From the NCBI GenBank assembly GCA_963703085.1, contig OY969789.1, positions 1,523,398 to 1,587,397 on the forward strand: a stretch of 64,000 nt of DNA, given 5' to 3'. A program made the position numbers and the translations under genes. The notes under the pieces were generated by a model. The model did no database searches and was not told where the DNA came from. It saw nothing but the letters and a program-made list of their open reading frames with translations. Shown here piece after piece: positions 37,214-43,458 of the stretch (positions are counted from its first letter, which is position 1; each line of letters opens with the position of its first letter). Source of the stretch: an uncultured Actinomycetota bacterium. GTDB lineage: Bacteria; Actinomycetota; Actinomycetes; Mycobacteriales; Jatrophihabitantaceae.

Positions 37214-37384
37214 TCACGCCGGTGATCGTCTCGGGATCATGCTCGCTCCGCAAGCGTCGCTCGGGATCATGCTCGCTCCGCAAGCGTCGCTCGGGATCAT
37301 GCTCGCTCCGCAAGCGTCGCTCGGGATCATGCTCGCTCCGCAAGCGTCGCTCGGGATCATGCTCGCTCCGCAAGCGTCGCTCAT
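37214..37384 (-). CDS. candidate repeat-encoded micro-ORF (56 aa) translationally coupled to the ABC-2 permease
   Basis: ATG 37384-37382 overlaps the permease TGA 37383-37381. The ORF reads MSDACGAS(MIPSDACGAS)x4MIPRRSPA and stops at 37216-37214. Every repeat unit supplies GGAG-N5-ATG in this frame. Translation is unproven. Confidence 0.3.
   Translation of the reverse strand: MSDACGASMIPSDACGASMIPSDACGASMIPSDACGASMIPSDACGASMIPRRSPA
37231..37380. repeat. perfect tandem repeat, 5 x 30 bp (tcgggatcatgctcgctccgcaagcgtcgc)
   Basis: Direct reading. Units at 37231, 37261, 37291, 37321 and 37351 are identical with no mismatch or spacer. They occupy 150 of the 177 nt between the ABC-2 permease stop and the kinase start. 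Confidence 0.98.
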
Positions 37385-38151: not shown

Positions 38152-39059
38152 GAGCGGTCCTTCGCGGCAGAGGTGAGGGCGACGAATGCGTCGTCGAGGG
38201 TGGCCTGGTCGACGCGCAGGGAGCGCGCGACGACGCCCTGCTGGGCGAGCCAGCCGGTGACCGAAGCGACCATCGCGTCATCGCCGATGACGCTGAGCGT
38301 TCCGCCGTGCCCGGCCACCTCGGTGACGCCCGGCAGAGCACGTAGCGCGTCCTCGTCGATCGGCCGCGACGGGACGAAGCGCAGGTGCTGCGGTGCGTCG
38401 ACGCGCTGGGCCAGCCCATCTGGCGTGTCCAGCGCGACGACCTTGCCGGAGTCGATCACGGCGACCCGGTCGCAGAGCCGCTCGGCCTCCTCCATGAAGT
38501 GGGTGACCAGCAGAATCGTCACCCCGCGGGCCCGTGCGTCCTCGATCAACTGCCAGGTCTCCCGGCGTGCGGCCGGATCGAGCCCGGTGGTCAGTTCGTC
38601 GAGAATGGCGACCCGGGGGTTGCCGATCAGCGCGAGCGCGATGGACAGCCGTTGCCGCTGGCCACCGGACAACCGGCGAAAGACAGTCCGGCGCGCAGCA
38701 GAGAGGCCGAGGCGTTCCATCAGCTCGCGCCAGTCGGCGGGATGCTCGTAGAACGAGCTGTACAGCTCGAGCGCCTCGGCGACGCGCAGCCGGTCGGGGA
38801 ACTGGCTGTCCTGCAGCTGCACACCGAGGATGCGGTGCAGCGCGGCGGCATCACGCTGCGGATCCAGCCCGTGCACCCGGATCGTTCCGCCGTCCGGGCG
38901 GCGCAACCCGGAGATGCATTCCGCGGTGGTGGTCTTGCCCGCGCCGTTCGGCCCGAGGATCCCGAAGATCTCGCCTTCTTCGACCTGCAGCGACACATCG
39001 TCGACGACGGTGCGCCGCCCGTACCGCTTCACTAGGTGGTCGACGTGCACGACCGGCAT
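38148..39059 (-). CDS. ABC transporter ATP-binding protein (DrrA/ABC-2 exporter type)
   Basis: Walker A GPNGAGKTT, signature LSGGQRQRLSIALAL, Walker B ILDELTTGLD. Confidence 0.95.
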   Translation of the reverse strand: MPVVHVDHLVKRYGRRTVVDDVSLQVEEGEIFGILGPNGAGKTTTAECISGLRRPDGGTIRVHGLDPQRDAAALHRILGVQLQDSQFPDRLRVAEALELYSSFYEHPADWRELMERLGLSAARRTVFRRLSGGQRQRLSIALALIGNPRVAILDELTTGLDPAARRETWQLIEDARARGVTILLVTHFMEEAERLCDRVAVIDSGKVVALDTPDGLAQRVDAPQHLRFVPSRPIDEDALRALPGVTEVAGHGGTLSVIGDDAMVASVTGWLAQQGVVARSLRVDQATLDDAFVALTSAAKDRS

Positions 39060-39226
39060 CGGTATTGCCCTTCTGAGTCAGTGGATTCGACCCGGTCAGC
39101 ATCCGATGAGACCGTCGCGTGCCGCATCGGCCGCATGGTCAGCAGTTCTCGCACTGCGGTGGATACCCCCATCCACCGATCGGTTGATGGGGCGTGGCCG
39201 GCCGAGCGAACTGGGCGGCCGGCGCC

Positions 39227-40126
39227 TCAGTCGACCGGGGTGATCCGAACCGGCCGGTGCACCAGGAACGCCGCCGGACCGGCCGCGTGGCAGGTCAGCT
39301 TGGCCGGCTCGGACCGCTCGACCACGACGGACACGTCGACCACGCCGTGCGGAGTGTCCAGCCGGACCGTGATCGGCTCGCCGTCGGTGCGGCGCAGCCC
39401 GATCACTCGGACCTCCCCCACCTTGCGCAGCGCGAGCTGCTCGTGGGCGAACGCCATCGCCGCCTGCGCCGCCGGGACGAAGCCCACCCGGCCGCGCAGC
39501 AGCGCCCCGACCACTTCGCCCGCCTCTGCGGCGTCGATGAATTCCTGCGCGGCGAACGGCAGCACCCGGCCGTAGAGCAACCCGGTCGGCAGCACCAGCA
39601 CGTTGGCGGCGAACCGTTCGCCGCCCACATGGCTGCACTCCCAGACCCGTCCGGGACGCAGTCGGGTCAGCGCGTCAGCTACGGGGCGCCCGCGCAGCGC
39701 GCAGCAGGTGTCGTGCCGGCTGTGCGCGCACACCAGGAAGGTGGGCGCCGTCTCGGCTGTACCGGCCGATCCGTCCAGCGGCAGGTCGAGCAGCTCGGCC
39801 TCGGCGGTGTAGGTGCCCCAGCGCTGCTCCTCGACGCCGGCCCGGCAGTTCACCAGCGCCCACTTGCGCAGCGCCCCCTTCGGTGTGCGGCCGAACCGGC
39901 GCACCGCGAGGGTCCGGATGCCGGCCACCGAGGCGCGCTGTTCCAGGTCCGTGGCGACGGCACGGTCGAAGCGCGATTCCCGTAGGCCGGCCGAACCCCA
40001 TGGCCCCGGCTGCTCGACGAGCAGGATGCGTCCGGCCGGGAAGGCCGTGCCGAGCATCGCGTCGCCACGGAGTTGGGCGCGCAACGCGCACCGTTCCAGG
40101 GTCTCGCGTGGGTGCGGGTGGGTCAC
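39227..40126 (-). CDS. sucrase/ferredoxin-like family protein (thioredoxin-like [2Fe-2S] fold)
   Basis: 299 aa. Contains LVEQPGPWG and the Cys cluster FLVCAHSRHDTCCALRGRP...WECSHVGGERFA, characteristic of the sucrase_ferredoxin family (recognised from memory). Confidence 0.8.
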   Translation of the reverse strand: MTHPHPRETLERCALRAQLRGDAMLGTAFPAGRILLVEQPGPWGSAGLRESRFDRAVATDLEQRASVAGIRTLAVRRFGRTPKGALRKWALVNCRAGVEEQRWGTYTAEAELLDLPLDGSAGTAETAPTFLVCAHSRHDTCCALRGRPVADALTRLRPGRVWECSHVGGERFAANVLVLPTGLLYGRVLPFAAQEFIDAAEAGEVVGALLRGRVGFVPAAQAAMAFAHEQLALRKVGEVRVIGLRRTDGEPITVRLDTPHGVVDVSVVVERSEPAKLTCHAAGPAAFLVHRPVRITPVD

Positions 40127-40142
40127 TGGCCGGCGGTGAGCA

Positions 40143-41429
40143 CTAATCGGCCGGGACGACGACGGCTTCGCGCACCAGCTGCCGAGCCAGTACGAGCTGT
40201 TCCTCGGCGTCCAGTCCGGGGAGCTGCTCCGGAGTGAACGGCTCGCCGGCCAACACCAGCTTCACGGCGGTCTCGACGGTCGGCGGCATGCTGACCGTCT
40301 TGTCCAGCACGCGCAGCTGCACGCCGGCACCGTTGCTGCTGAGCGTGTGGCGCAGGCCGGCGCGCAGCCGCAACGGAGTGTGCGGGGTCAACGCGGCAAG
40401 CAAGTGTGCATGCGCGAGCGGAGCGATCGGTTCCGGCCGGGTGGCCGCGGCCAGCGTCGCTCCCAGACCGGAGGCGACGCGCGCGGTGAGCTCGTCGCCA
40501 CCGGTGTGCAGCAGGTCGGTCAACGCTGCCAGGGTGTTGCGCAGCTGCGGGGCCAGCGTCGCGGGATCGGACAGGTCGACCGCGGCCGGCAAGGAGCCGC
40601 GCAGCCGCGGGTCGTCCTTGGCCGCGGTGAGGAGCTGATCGATCAGCGCTGCGCGGGTGATCGGGTGGATGCCGACCGTGAGGTGGATGGACAACTCCCC
40701 GCGCGCCACGGCGGAATGCAGATAGCCGCGCGGCAGGTAGAGGGCGTCGCCGGGGGAGAGCTCGGTGTCGATGAGCGGCGGCTCCTCGGCCCGGCGGGCA
40801 ACCGCATCGCGGTGCTTCTCCCAGGGCTGGTCGACCAACGGATCAGCGAGCACCGGCTCGTGGATGCGCCAGTGCTTGCGCCCGGCGACCTGCAGCACGA
40901 ACACGTCGTGGGTGTCGTAGTGCGCGGCAAAACCCTGGTTCTGCGGCGGGGTGATGTAAGCGTTGATCTGCACCGGATGGCCCAGCTCGGCCGCCAGGGC
41001 CGAGCCGAACTGCACCAGCGGCGGCCAGGTGCGGTGCAATGCCTGCAGGACCAGCGTCGCGCCGTCGGCGATGAGCTGCAGCACCTTGTCATCGGCCACC
41101 TGGTCGGTGATGGTCGCGCCGGTGCCGCCACCGCGGGTGTACCGCGCCGGCGGCAGCAGGCCGCCTTCCTTGGCCATGCGCAGGAACGGAGTACGCAGCC
41201 CTCGGCGGGAGATCAGCTCATCGACCGCTGCGGAGTCCAGCAAGTCGGTGAACCCGTCGACCGGCAACTCGGCGGCCGTGCGCAGCAGGGGGCGCGCGCT
41301 CCAGTACTCCCGGGCGAACTGCTCGGCAGGCAATCCGGTGGCCCGGGCGACTGCCGACGGGCCAGCAGCGGACCGGGGGTGCCGGACCTCTCGGTCCGGC
41401 ACCCCCGGGTCTGCGGTCACATCAACCAT
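40143..41429 (-). CDS. JmjC / cupin-4 family 2-oxoglutarate-Fe(II) oxygenase-like protein (ribosomal oxygenase RoxA/YcfD-like)
   Basis: 428 aa. HxD...H facial triad context FAAHYDTHDVFVLQVAGRKHWRI ... GDALYLPRGYLHSAV. A C-terminal winged-helix-like region follows, as in cupin-4 proteins. Confidence 0.85.
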   Translation of the reverse strand: MVDVTADPGVPDREVRHPRSAAGPSAVARATGLPAEQFAREYWSARPLLRTAAELPVDGFTDLLDSAAVDELISRRGLRTPFLRMAKEGGLLPPARYTRGGGTGATITDQVADDKVLQLIADGATLVLQALHRTWPPLVQFGSALAAELGHPVQINAYITPPQNQGFAAHYDTHDVFVLQVAGRKHWRIHEPVLADPLVDQPWEKHRDAVARRAEEPPLIDTELSPGDALYLPRGYLHSAVARGELSIHLTVGIHPITRAALIDQLLTAAKDDPRLRGSLPAAVDLSDPATLAPQLRNTLAALTDLLHTGGDELTARVASGLGATLAAATRPEPIAPLAHAHLLAALTPHTPLRLRAGLRHTLSSNGAGVQLRVLDKTVSMPPTVETAVKLVLAGEPFTPEQLPGLDAEEQLVLARQLVREAVVVPAD

Positions 41430-41441
41430 GCAGTGTCGTGT

Positions 41442-41705
41442 TCAGCTGGCGCCGCCATCGGCGCCGCCGTCGTGCTCACCGGGCGCGCCATCGGCGCCCC
41501 CGTCCGCGGGACCCTCGGCGCCACCATCAGCACCACCGTCGGCACCGCCATCCTCCGTACCCGGAGCGCCGGCGGCGCCGCCGTCCGCGGGGCCCTCGGC
41601 GCCGCCATCAGCACCACCGTCGTGCTGGCCGGGCGTGCCGTCCGCGCCGCCGTCAGCTGGGCCTTCGGTCTCGTCCGTGCTGAATCCGTCGTCGGTTACG
41701 CTCAT
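41442..41705 (-). CDS. small acidic Asp/Gly-rich repeat protein (87 aa), hypothetical
   Basis: ATG 41705 has AGGAGG 4 nt upstream. Three tandem 23-27 aa units of the form EGPADGGADGxPGxxDGGADGGA. The stop lies 12 nt before the cupin ATG. The opposite-strand ORFs here are Arg-rich shadow frames. Confidence 0.6.
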   Translation of the reverse strand: MSVTDDGFSTDETEGPADGGADGTPGQHDGGADGGAEGPADGGAAGAPGTEDGGADGGADGGAEGPADGGADGAPGEHDGGADGGAS

Positions 41706-41833
41706 CGTTCCTCCTGGATCAGGGCGTGCGCCAGCGAACTCGCCGAGCGCAGTTGGACGCGGCGGGGGTTCCACCGGTGCTCACCGTAGCGACCCGCCGA
41801 ACCCGGCCACAAGCACCTCGGTCGGCCTTCCGG

Positions 41834-42070
41834 TCAGGCGTTACCGAGCGGACCGGGCAGCGTCGGTGGCGCCAACGGCGGCGGCGCCGACGGGTCCGGG
41901 GCGGGGGTCGGCAGCGGCTGTGGCGGGGCTTGCGGATCAGCCGGGCTCGGGTTCGGTGTCGGGGTCGGTGGCGGACCAGGCCGCGGTGGAGCGGGACTCG
42001 GCGGGACCAGCGGGTCCGGATCGGCGGGCGGCGTGGTGCCTGGATCGGGCTCGACAGGTGGGATCGTCAT
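41834..42070 (-). CDS. small proline-rich protein (78 aa), hypothetical
   Basis: ATG 42070 has GGAGG 8 nt upstream. About 45% Pro (PPSPAPPRPGPPPTPTPNPSP...), with no signal peptide or TM helix. Coding status is uncertain because of low complexity. Confidence 0.45.
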   Translation of the reverse strand: MTIPPVEPDPGTTPPADPDPLVPPSPAPPRPGPPPTPTPNPSPADPQAPPQPLPTPAPDPSAPPPLAPPTLPGPLGNA

Positions 42071-42213
42071 GACGCACCTCCGCGTCCACTATCTCATTGC
42101 CGGGTCAGCACGGTCGATGTGTCGCCCGACGACGGAAGTTTCCCGGCGCGGCGATGAGTTCGGGGAGCTGCAGCGGTCAGTACGCACATAGCCACCGACG
42201 ACAGGAGCACGTC

Positions 42214-42690
42214 ATGCCCCGGATCACGCCCAACCTCTGGTTCGACACCGAGAGCCAAGAGGCCGCCGAGTACTACGTCTCGGTGTTCCCGAACTCGAAG
42301 ATCACCAACATCGTCAACTACCCCGAGGGAGCGCCACGTCCTGCCGGCACGGTCATGATCGTCGAGTTCGTGCTGGACGGGCAGGAGTACACCGCCATCA
42401 ACGGCGGCCCGGAATTCACCTTCGACGAGGCGATTTCATTCCTGATCGACTGCGCCGATCAGGACGAGGTCGACTACTACTGGTCGACGCTGTCCGAAGG
42501 CGGCGAGGAGGGCCCGTGCGGATGGCTGAAGGACAAGTACGGACTGTCCTGGCAGGTGATCCCGGCGGAGATGGCACAGGTGCTGAGTGACCCGGATGAG
42601 AAGCGGGCGCAGCGGGCCGTCAAGGCCATGTTCGGGATGAAGAAGATCGACCTCGCCGCACTCAAGGCGGCCGCGGACCGCGAGGAGTAG
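42214..42690 (+). CDS. VOC family protein (PhnB-like / 3-demethylubiquinone-9 methyltransferase-domain family)
   Basis: ATG 42214 has AGGAG upstream. ITPNLWFD...AEEAAEYY-type N-terminus, INGGPEFTFDEAISF, GWLKDKYGLSWQV. Confidence 0.85.
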   Translation: MPRITPNLWFDTESQEAAEYYVSVFPNSKITNIVNYPEGAPRPAGTVMIVEFVLDGQEYTAINGGPEFTFDEAISFLIDCADQDEVDYYWSTLSEGGEEGPCGWLKDKYGLSWQVIPAEMAQVLSDPDEKRAQRAVKAMFGMKKIDLAALKAAADREE

Positions 42691-42696
42691 CGCGGT

Positions 42697-43458
42697 CTAG
42701 ACCGGCTTGCGGGCGCGGTGCAGCGCGACGATGCCGCCGGTCAGGTTGCGCCACTGCACCTCGGCCCAGCCGTTCGCCGCGACGATGCGAGCCAGTTCGG
42801 CCTGCGCGGGCCAGCGCCGGATCGATTCGGCGAGATAGACGTAGGCGTCCGGGTTGCTCGCCACCCGGCGGGCGATCCACGGCAGCGCGCGCATCAGATA
42901 ACGCAGGTAGATGTGCCGGAACGGCGCGAATACGGGCCGGCTGAATTCACACACCACCAGTACCCCGCCCGGCCGGGTGACCCTGGCCAGCTCGCGCAGC
43001 GCCAGTCCGACGTCGTTGACGTTGCGCAGCCCGAAGCTGATGCTGGCCGAGTCGAAGGAGTTGTCGGCGAACGGCAGGGCCAGTGCGTCGCCGGCGACGA
43101 ACGGCAACCAGCTGCGTTCCTTGCGCTTCTTGCCGGACTGCAGCATGCCGATGGAGAAGTCACAGGCCACCGGGGTGACGCCGGCTAGCGCCAGCTCGGC
43201 GGTGGACACGCCGGTGCCGGCGGCCAGGTCGAGCACCCATTGGCCCGGCTGCAGCTCCAGTGAGCGCCGGGTGCGCCGGCGCCACCGCCGATCCTGGCCG
43301 AGCGACAGCACCGAGTTGGTCAGGTCGTATCGCTTGGCGACCCCGTCGAACATGTTGGCGACGTCGCGCGGAGACTTGTCCAGACCGGCGACGGAGGCGC
43401 CGGTCTGGGTCGCGGACGTCTCGGGGGCGGGGTTCATCTCCCGTTCAGTGTCTCGCAT
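42697..43458 (-). CDS. menG: demethylmenaquinone methyltransferase
   Basis: UbiE/MenG motifs: [29 protein letters not shown] motif VLDLAAGTG, and SISFGLRNV. An alternative start is ATG 43437. Confidence 0.92.

Follow-up and report, generated by a model that had tools for sequence, protein, structure and literature searches.

What does a JmjC-type oxygenase act on when it is encoded immediately behind a gene for a small, strongly acidic repeat peptide? The question is raised by a 64,000-nucleotide stretch (hereafter, the window; G+C about 70%) of contig OY969789.1 from an uncultured actinomycetotal bacterium, whose genes are closest to those of Jatrophihabitans and other Jatrophihabitantaceae. 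A sequence-only reading of this DNA had described four same-strand open reading frames (ORFs) separated by gaps of 128, 12 and 16 nt, and all four were found where it had placed them, on the minus strand and with the same gaps. In the order of transcription they are a 78-aa proline-rich ORF (41834-42070), an 87-aa acidic repeat ORF (41442-41705), a 428-aa JmjC_2/Cupin_8 protein (40143-41429; Pfam JmjC_2 PF08007, E 1.5e-27, and Cupin_8) and a 299-aa sucrase/ferredoxin-like (Suc_Fer-like) protein (39227-40126; Pfam PF06999, E 1.4e-18). The proposal that these ORFs constitute a substrate-enzyme module is partly supported: the observation itself was confirmed, and the interpretation holds for three ORFs out of four. 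The acidic ORF, the JmjC gene and the Suc_Fer-like gene form a conserved same-strand unit, while the Pro-rich ORF lies outside it.

A profile built from 14 JmjC orthologues was scanned against one genome per species. At least 566 confirmed JmjC matches were obtained in species-representative genomes, and the best 80 loci (48-83% identity) were examined. In 79 of them the JmjC gene is immediately preceded, on its own strand, by a small Asp/Gly-rich ORF; in the exception, L060, the contig starts 12 nt before the JmjC match and has no upstream sequence, which makes 79 out of 79 evaluable loci. The next gene downstream, again co-directional, is the Suc_Fer-like one in 78 of the 80. The neighbourhood survey suggested by the sequence-only reading has thus borne out the association for these two genes. 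A reverse search, starting from peptide homologues, found JmjC immediately downstream in all three contexts (Streptomyces, Salinispora and a metagenome contig), with JmjC identity of 47-56% and a Suc_Fer gene in just one of the three. The cassette lies in housekeeping regions of the chromosome and occurs in Jatrophihabitantaceae, Nakamurella, Pseudonocardia, Actinokineospora, Modestobacter, Cryptosporangium, Marmoricola, Rhodococcus, Cellulomonas, Agromyces, Herbiconiux and Thermoleophilia metagenome-assembled genomes (MAGs). The order peptide, JmjC, Suc_Fer-like is therefore kept in many actinomycetotal orders and also in a few MAGs of Vulcanimicrobiota. Since no other neighbour is conserved across lineages, the conserved unit consists of the peptide and JmjC genes, usually with the Suc_Fer-like gene.

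The Vulcanimicrobiota occurrences (L045, L048 and L061) are full cassettes on contigs of 0.87-3.4 Mb from MAGs labelled Eremiobacterota/Baltobacteraceae, and reflect either horizontal transfer or mis-binning.

The peptide ATG in the window is preceded at 4 nt by the Shine-Dalgarno sequence AGGAGG (41710..41715, minus strand), as had been read from the sequence, and the CAGGAGGAACGATGAGC Shine-Dalgarno context recurs in one Streptomyces locus. Translational coupling had been suggested for the 12-nt gap between the acidic ORF and the JmjC gene. This agrees with the relatives, where a stop/start overlap (ATGA, GTGA or TGATG) is possible at 31 of 68 peptide-JmjC junctions and at most JmjC-Suc_Fer junctions, in an analysis that takes the nearest start and is thus biased toward short distances. 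A single operon of three genes is the best explanation.

Is the acidic ORF a gene at all? Several features could suggest that repetitive, GC-rich DNA has thrown up both small ORFs as non-coding artefacts. Their G+C content at the third codon position (GC3) is 0.74-0.75 versus 0.88-0.91 in the neighbouring genes, and neither ORF, with these starts, is present in a collection of 15 billion proteins. An overlapping, +1-shifted minus-strand frame at 41417-41617 (66 aa) reaches a GC3 of 0.97, and a 369-aa antisense shadow ORF (40963-42072, plus strand) covers both small genes. Against this stands the pattern of divergence from L001, the closest relative (JmjC 83% identical): substitutions in the acidic ORF at codon positions 1/2/3 number 7/11/36, and the indels are in frame. 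A Shine-Dalgarno-like motif is located 4-14 nt upstream in 51 of the 52 loci with an assignable start, compared with 16% for random ATGs. In 79 loci, distant taxa included, the ORF keeps its frame, its start context, the N-terminal motif and the place of its stop. Position-3-biased divergence, in-frame indels and the Shine-Dalgarno data together indicate that both small ORFs are under coding constraint. On this comparative evidence the acidic ORF is a real gene under protein-level selection; an artefact is hardly credible, and for this ORF effectively refuted.

The 66-aa frame at 41417-41617 was also considered as the true gene and rejected, as it is interrupted by stops, is not kept as an ORF and can be regarded as a shadow of the GNC-rich true frame. 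The latter is rich in T-ending codons (GGT, GAT, GCT) for a genome of 72% G+C. A frame plot alone would pick the wrong frame here because of the GC3 of 0.97 in the overlapping frame against 0.74 in the true one.

The gene is poorly represented in protein databases. A profile search with the acidic peptide recovered 77 clusters among 1.84 billion representative proteins, while the JmjC search matched 6095 proteins, so the peptide gene must be heavily under-called. Its database homologues are named "hypothetical protein" or, by stray annotation, "BatC protein". The hidden Markov model searches proposed for both small proteins returned no family: neither the acidic nor the Pro-rich one has a match in Pfam, NCBIfam or PADLOC. 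Some database gene models (P0024, P0312, P0323, P0335 and P0342) swallow the peptide gene. P0024 (584 aa) represents JmjC models over-extended upstream in the wrong frame; others are frameshifted chimeras, which begin as the peptide and then run out of frame. Such absorption partly explains the near-invisibility of the family. The long matches that look like peptide-JmjC fusions were rejected as such, being over-extended wrong-frame starts or frameshifted assemblies. With almost no Lys or Arg, the peptide would also be missed by trypsin-based proteomics. The cassette thus illustrates a systematic annotation gap, and its peptide gene is absent from the protein collection of this very genome.

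The peptide encoded in the window contains 21 Asp and Glu residues and no Lys or Arg (isoelectric point 4.05). It starts with a leader-like segment, MSVTDDGFSTDET (41705-41667, minus strand), and continues with three tandem units EGPADGGAxGxPGx[H/E]DGGADGGA (41666-41598, 41597-41517 and 41516-41448, minus strand), a Ser and a TGA stop. Comparison of 53 peptides gave a median length of 86 aa (range 58-183) and a composition of 36% Gly, 19% Ala and 19% Asp; Cys is absent, and Lys, Arg and aromatic residues are nearly so. Their N-termini follow the consensus M-[SAD]-[LIV]-[DSN]-D-D-D-[IM]-T-T, of which MSVTDDGFST in the window is a degenerate version; nearly all of them have the Asp run at residues 4-7. 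The repeats that follow this conserved motif vary in number, a layout reminiscent of a precursor with a leader and several cores. The DGGADG core is invariant (293 copies in total), is usually followed by [GS]-A, and in the form DGGADG[GS]A makes up the exact C-terminal end of many peptides. In many lineages it is part of a unit of about 22 aa, EG[PT]ADGGAxxxPGxHDGGADG[GS]A, present in 2-6 copies; other peptides carry only GDGGADG-type units. HDGGADG occurs in 29 peptides, His precedes 65 of the 293 cores, and 17 peptides have no His at all. Asp is the sole universally conserved functional side chain. The peptide is taken to be a small, very acidic, intrinsically disordered protein.

The JmjC protein scores 96 bits against PF08007 (cut-off 22); neither NCBIfam nor PADLOC has a model for it or for the Suc_Fer-like protein. 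Its predicted metal triad H170/D172/H238, the 2-oxoglutarate (2OG)-binding K185 and the HxT motif H249-T251 are invariant in 14 orthologues, and these catalytic residues align with the NO66 motifs HYD, GRK and RGxxH. The HxT motif serves as a criterion for NO66-like versions of the domain (PMC2938197). The best sequence matches in PDB are NO66 (E 2.6e-20), MINA53 (5e-17), Rhodothermus tROX (4e-9), YcfD (2.5e-8) and YxbC (6e-7). Foldseek comparison of the AlphaFold model (pLDDT 77) gave full-length matches to NO66, MINA53, YcfD and tROX with E from 1e-21 to 1e-14, over alignments of about 430-490 columns with template-modelling scores of about 0.45-0.54. By sequence and modelled fold, the protein is therefore a predicted Fe(II)/2OG enzyme of the MINA/NO66/YcfD clade, i.e., of the ribosomal oxygenases (ROX).

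The predicted architecture comprises a JmjC domain, a helical domain and a C-terminal beta-beta-beta-alpha-alpha domain, the latter modelled with strands at 361-366, 369-374 and 377-381 and helices at 383-393 and 408-420. In the model, this order of elements resembles the recognition element (RRE) of peptides made on the ribosome and modified post-translationally (RiPPs). RRE-like folds fused to PF08007 domains have been described by Bregman et al. (PMC12710340). Homology to known ROX detectable at the sequence level begins at residue 117, and residues 60-116 are specific to the subfamily. They include a strongly conserved Arg-rich stretch at 72-105 (R76, R79, R84, K87, R96, R99), which is modelled as disordered and fits a flap that would become ordered on an acidic ligand.

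Characterised ROX enzymes (E. coli YcfD/RoxA, Rhodothermus tROX, human NO66/RIOX1 and MINA53/RIOX2) thus share with the window enzyme the PF08007 domain, the HxD...H triad, the 2OG-binding Lys, the HxT motif and a three-domain layout. In them the C-terminal domain is winged-helix or winged-helix-like and the helical domain serves dimerisation; for the window enzyme the layout is taken from the model. The known ROX target residues are an Arg of uL16, a His of uL2 and a His of uL15. All of these enzymes modify an Arg or a His in ribosomal proteins, and none is encoded together with a peptide (PMC6006756, PMC2938197). For the window enzyme, the genomic context speaks for another substrate, one encoded alongside it. 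The window subfamily differs in being only about 20-24% identical to them, in its own residues 60-116 with their Arg-rich segment, and in that it is always preceded by the acidic repeat-peptide gene and usually followed by the Suc_Fer-like gene. In their survey of JmjC contexts, Iyer et al. list ATP-grasp ligases, cyanophage dioxygenase arrays and purB/mnmA/pseudouridine synthase for MINA/NO66-clade proteins of bacteria, the last of these being the context of proteobacterial YcfD; the peptide-JmjC-Suc_Fer cassette is not listed there (PMC2938197).

The Suc_Fer-like protein belongs to the thioredoxin-like ferredoxin family and has an additional C-terminal beta-rich domain of about 90 aa. Among 75 orthologues, C133, H135, H138, D139, C141, C142, H166, G168, G169, R171 and F172 are invariant or nearly so, while C13 and C279 are 96-97% conserved. 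Conservation makes C13, C133, H135, H138, D139, C141, C142, H166 and C279 candidate metal ligands, and a redox or metal cofactor is likely. The AlphaFold model (pLDDT 79) has low confidence exactly in the ligand-bearing loops, and neither a sequence search of PDB nor Foldseek turned up a significant match. The source annotation seemingly starts this protein 14 codons later (a 100% identical 285-aa entry). We favour the 299-aa start (GTG at 40126), as the orthologues conserve the upstream residues including C13 (97%). The closest known proteins for comparison are the thioredoxin-like [2Fe-2S] ferredoxins of Apd1/Aim32 type, characterised by the motif CX8C...HX3H with two His ligands (PMC8482512). 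The window protein shares with them PF06999, an invariant CX8C (C133...C142) and the first His, within HxGG (H166-x-G-G). It differs in having Glu at position 170, both in the window and in the consensus, so that the second His of HX3H is not kept, and also in the extra invariant H135, H138, D139 and C141, the near-invariant C13 and C279 and the C-terminal beta-domain.

The Pro-rich ORF (46% Pro) has a different history. Its GGAGG had been placed 8 nt upstream; the spacing to the ATG is in fact 6 nt. Compared with L001, substitutions at codon positions 1/2/3 number 11/5/31, and there is an in-frame indel of 9 codons. Combined DNA alignment and uncorrected search found orthologues only in L001 (5353-5562) and L016 (1052-1294), with both ends in common, MT[IM]PPVEP...APPLAPPxLPGPLG; tblastn with composition-based statistics returned no match, which is a false negative. 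The expected co-occurrence with the cassette was not observed for this ORF. In both relatives it is located directly downstream of menG, and in L016 it is 4.3 kb away from the JmjC gene. As its sole relatives lie directly after menG, the ORF appears tied to menG and not to the JmjC cassette. In the window, a plus-strand PF06983 gene (42214-42690; 3-demethylubiquinone-9 3-methyltransferase-like/VOC-type) sits between menG (42697-43458, minus strand) and the Pro-rich ORF. Judging by these comparisons, the Pro-rich ORF is a real, lineage-restricted small gene, adjacent to the cassette by chance. The PF06983 gene is missing at the matching position in L001 and is probably a local insertion.

Genes for an ABC ATPase, an ABC-2 permease and a histidine kinase begin 167 nt past the Suc_Fer-like gene. 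They were considered as parts of the system and rejected, since they follow the cassette only in the window and L001, with the ABC pair also found in L035. A perfect 30-bp tandem repeat (37230-37382; 5.1 copies of CTCGGGATCATGCTCGCTCCGCAAGCGTCG, 100% matches) sits between the ABC-2 permease and histidine kinase genes and is open in several frames.

In one Streptomyces sp. (L081, 2042-7305), the cassette is located right after genes for S14, L28, L33, L31 and S18 and a CobW-type GTPase, a cluster resembling those of Zn-independent ribosomal-protein paralogues. No ribosomal-protein or CobW genes were found near the cassette in the other 80 loci. Zur or iron regulation of the operon, prompted by these neighbours, was rejected: no AT-rich box was seen by eye upstream in the window or in L081, and the neighbours are not conserved.

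A tentative cassette promoter in the window could be TTGTGG, separated by 18 nt from TACGGT, a TAnnnT-type -10 element (41783..41812, minus strand). The -10 element, GCTACGGTGAGC, is kept in L001, and 45% of loci have TA[GC][CG][GC]T upstream of the peptide gene, compared with 5.8% of control windows. Scans for consensus promoters and terminators (38900-42750) and for Rfam elements (41300-42800) gave nothing meaningful. In 10 of 56 loci (L009, L010, L012, L022, L027, L031, L041, L043, L046 and L051), a G[GT]TT[TA]-N13-17-GGGTA motif is located 42-74 nt upstream of the peptide start (0.1% in control windows); GGGTA alone precedes the peptide gene in 45% of loci versus 6.5% of controls. The motif matches the published SigF/SigB-type stress promoter consensus GTTT-N14-19-GGGTA (PMC4694148, PMC8346170), a hint that in some lineages the cassette may act under stress or in stationary phase. 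In the window, no GGGTA element precedes the peptide gene.

What could the oxygenase be doing next to this peptide? Judged from genomic data, chances seem evenly balanced that the peptide is its dedicated substrate, hydroxylated on Asp and/or His, with the Suc_Fer-like protein as an accessory redox partner. We favour this reading because of the strict co-occurrence, the leader-plus-repeats layout, the intact hydroxylase site, the basic flap and the precedent of JmjC enzymes acting on co-encoded peptides. The closest solved relatives, besides, are protein hydroxylases that act on Gly-rich substrate loops. The N-terminal x-[LIV]-x-DDD-[IM]-TT would be a leader-like recognition sequence, for which the C-terminal beta-beta-beta-alpha-alpha domain or the Arg-rich segment 72-105 may be the docking site, and the DGGADG repeats would be passed to the JmjC site for repeated hydroxylation. 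Modification would most likely fall on the C-beta of Asp, since no other hydroxylatable residue is kept in every repeat; in cores with a preceding His, the C-beta of that His could also be modified, as with NO66 and MINA53. The Suc_Fer-like protein, presumably of Fe-S type, might for example re-reduce the iron of the oxygenase and would be dispensable in some lineages. The product may be a cytoplasmic poly-hydroxylated polyanion, plausibly a metal-binding or stress-related factor. It probably stays in the cytoplasm, as no exporter or protease is conserved with the cassette; for the same reason the cell-envelope function suggested earlier finds no backing. The sequence-only reading had counted against itself a grouping of the oxygenase with ribosomal-protein hydroxylases that lack such neighbours. 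One half of this was found: by sequence and fold the clade is that of the ribosomal oxygenases, yet this orthologous group always carries the peptide.

A number of points weigh against the substrate reading. Genomic linkage alone does not prove an enzyme-substrate relation, and tight 1:1 translational coupling is typical of protein partners and less so of a substrate made in excess. With 17 of 53 peptides devoid of His and just 65 of 293 cores preceded by it, a universal NO66-like His target is impossible, and we know of no ROX-clade enzyme that hydroxylates Asp. No leader protease or exporter is conserved with the cassette, the ABC pair being present only in the window, L001 and L035. The C-terminal domain of the oxygenase has no Pfam match even at E 10, PqqD/RRE included. 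Some peptide-JmjC loci have no Suc_Fer-like gene, and where the protein is encoded, the second His of the Apd1/Aim32 CX8C...HX3H motif is not kept.

These points leave room for the peptide to be a partner instead. In such a case JmjC would be a hydroxylase of ribosomal or other cellular proteins, like YcfD, tROX or NO66, and the peptide a stoichiometric partner, for instance an rRNA-mimicking chaperone of a basic substrate protein, or a pseudo-substrate inhibitor or regulator of the enzyme. The nearest relatives by sequence and fold are all ribosomal oxygenases, the frequent stop/start overlap points to the equimolar production seen with subunits, a polyanion free of Lys and Arg would complement basic ribosomal proteins, and one Streptomyces cassette abuts ribosomal-protein paralogue genes. 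We still find this unlikely, as the remaining 80 loci have no such genes nearby, and the invariant DGGADG core and N-terminal motif exceed what a generic polyanion would need. The subfamily also has a conserved Arg-rich segment of its own, and the proteobacterial YcfD context (purB/mnmA) has no such peptide (PMC2938197). Quite unlikely, in our opinion, is an unmodified polyanion that binds or buffers metals (Ca2+, Fe, Zn, Mg), with JmjC and the Suc_Fer-like protein as linked metalloproteins that, e.g., receive or sense iron. The Gly/Asp/Ala-rich composition, which lacks Cys and aromatics and includes His in many repeats, the two neighbours predicted to be iron proteins, and the CobW metallochaperone and Zn-independent ribosomal-protein paralogue genes adjoining the Streptomyces cassette would all suit such a role. 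However, metal-related neighbours are not conserved, visual inspection revealed nothing resembling a Zur or iron box upstream in either the window or L081, and the strictly conserved 2OG site implies that the enzyme oxidises something, the peptide being its only constant neighbour.

More improbable still is that the small ORF acts in cis as a regulatory leader, where translation of the Asp-rich start and the Asp/Gly-rich repeats (by destabilising or stalling ribosomes, in a manner sensitive to Mg2+ or charged tRNA) sets JmjC and Suc_Fer expression and the peptide as such has no function. Acidic N-terminal runs destabilise translating ribosomes, the Asp run at residues 4-7 is near-universal and the downstream gene is often translationally coupled, all of which would agree with such a leader. 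Leader peptides are usually short, though, while here 58-183 aa are kept open, with motifs conserved to the C-terminus across phyla and substitutions biased to position 3 throughout the ORF. Between the genes, scans revealed neither an attenuator- or terminator-like structure nor an Rfam element, and the gap in the window is only 12 nt.

The substrate reading has precedents in known systems. JmjC enzymes that hydroxylate adjacent ribosomal peptides include CzlI of curacozole (PMC11575548) and BpmG/PbsQ of the biphenomycins (PMC12257519). There, as in the window, a gene for an Fe/2OG JmjC-type enzyme adjoins a short ribosomal peptide gene. The RiPP hallmark of a precursor gene adjacent to the modifying enzyme was found at 79 of 79 evaluable and 3 of 3 peptide-anchored loci. 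CzlI and BpmG/PbsQ, however, belong to YxbC-like or other JmjC subfamilies, operate within multi-enzyme antibiotic clusters (with proteases, cyclodehydratases, a DUF692-type iron oxidase (MNIO) or radical-SAM enzymes) and hit single sites of Phe, Arg or Lys type in short cores. The window cassette, by contrast, is minimal, with one oxygenase, a ferredoxin-like protein and a polyanionic tandem-repeat peptide of 58-183 aa. Precedents for beta-hydroxylation of Asp, Asn or His are CinX on the ribosomal peptide cinnamycin (PMC11575548), AspH on epidermal growth factor-like domains and FIH on ankyrin repeats (PMC4543633). CinX and AspH are outside the ROX clade; all three act on a single defined target or a folded repeat domain, and none has a co-encoded disordered repeat substrate. 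No description of the cassette was found in the searchable literature, which leaves out most papers in subscription journals. The cassette is widespread and apparently undescribed; it varies the known theme of a JmjC hydroxylase encoded together with a peptide, using a clade that has so far been known only for ribosome hydroxylation.

ROX-clade JmjC oxygenases have been studied as ribosome hydroxylases from E. coli to humans. If the substrate reading is true, a readily testable substrate would be at hand for the actinomycetotal orthologue, represented by at least 566 matches in species-representative genomes. The cassette would stand as a new minimal peptide-modification system. ROX chemistry would then extend past ribosomal proteins, possibly to Asp, and bacterial Suc_Fer-like proteins would gain their first functional context. 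Going further, we speculate, as something possible rather than probable, that actinobacterial ROX homologues may not modify ribosomes at all and may instead be the catalytic half of a widespread, overlooked two- to three-gene system, in which case they would be the first of the ROX clade to have a dedicated substrate outside the ribosome, and the product a new minimal class of modified peptide. From a ribosomally made tandem-repeat peptide with DGGADG cores, the system would produce a poly(beta-hydroxy-Asp/His) polyanion serving as an intracellular metal chelator or stress protectant, with a non-canonical Suc_Fer-type Fe-S protein as the redox partner.

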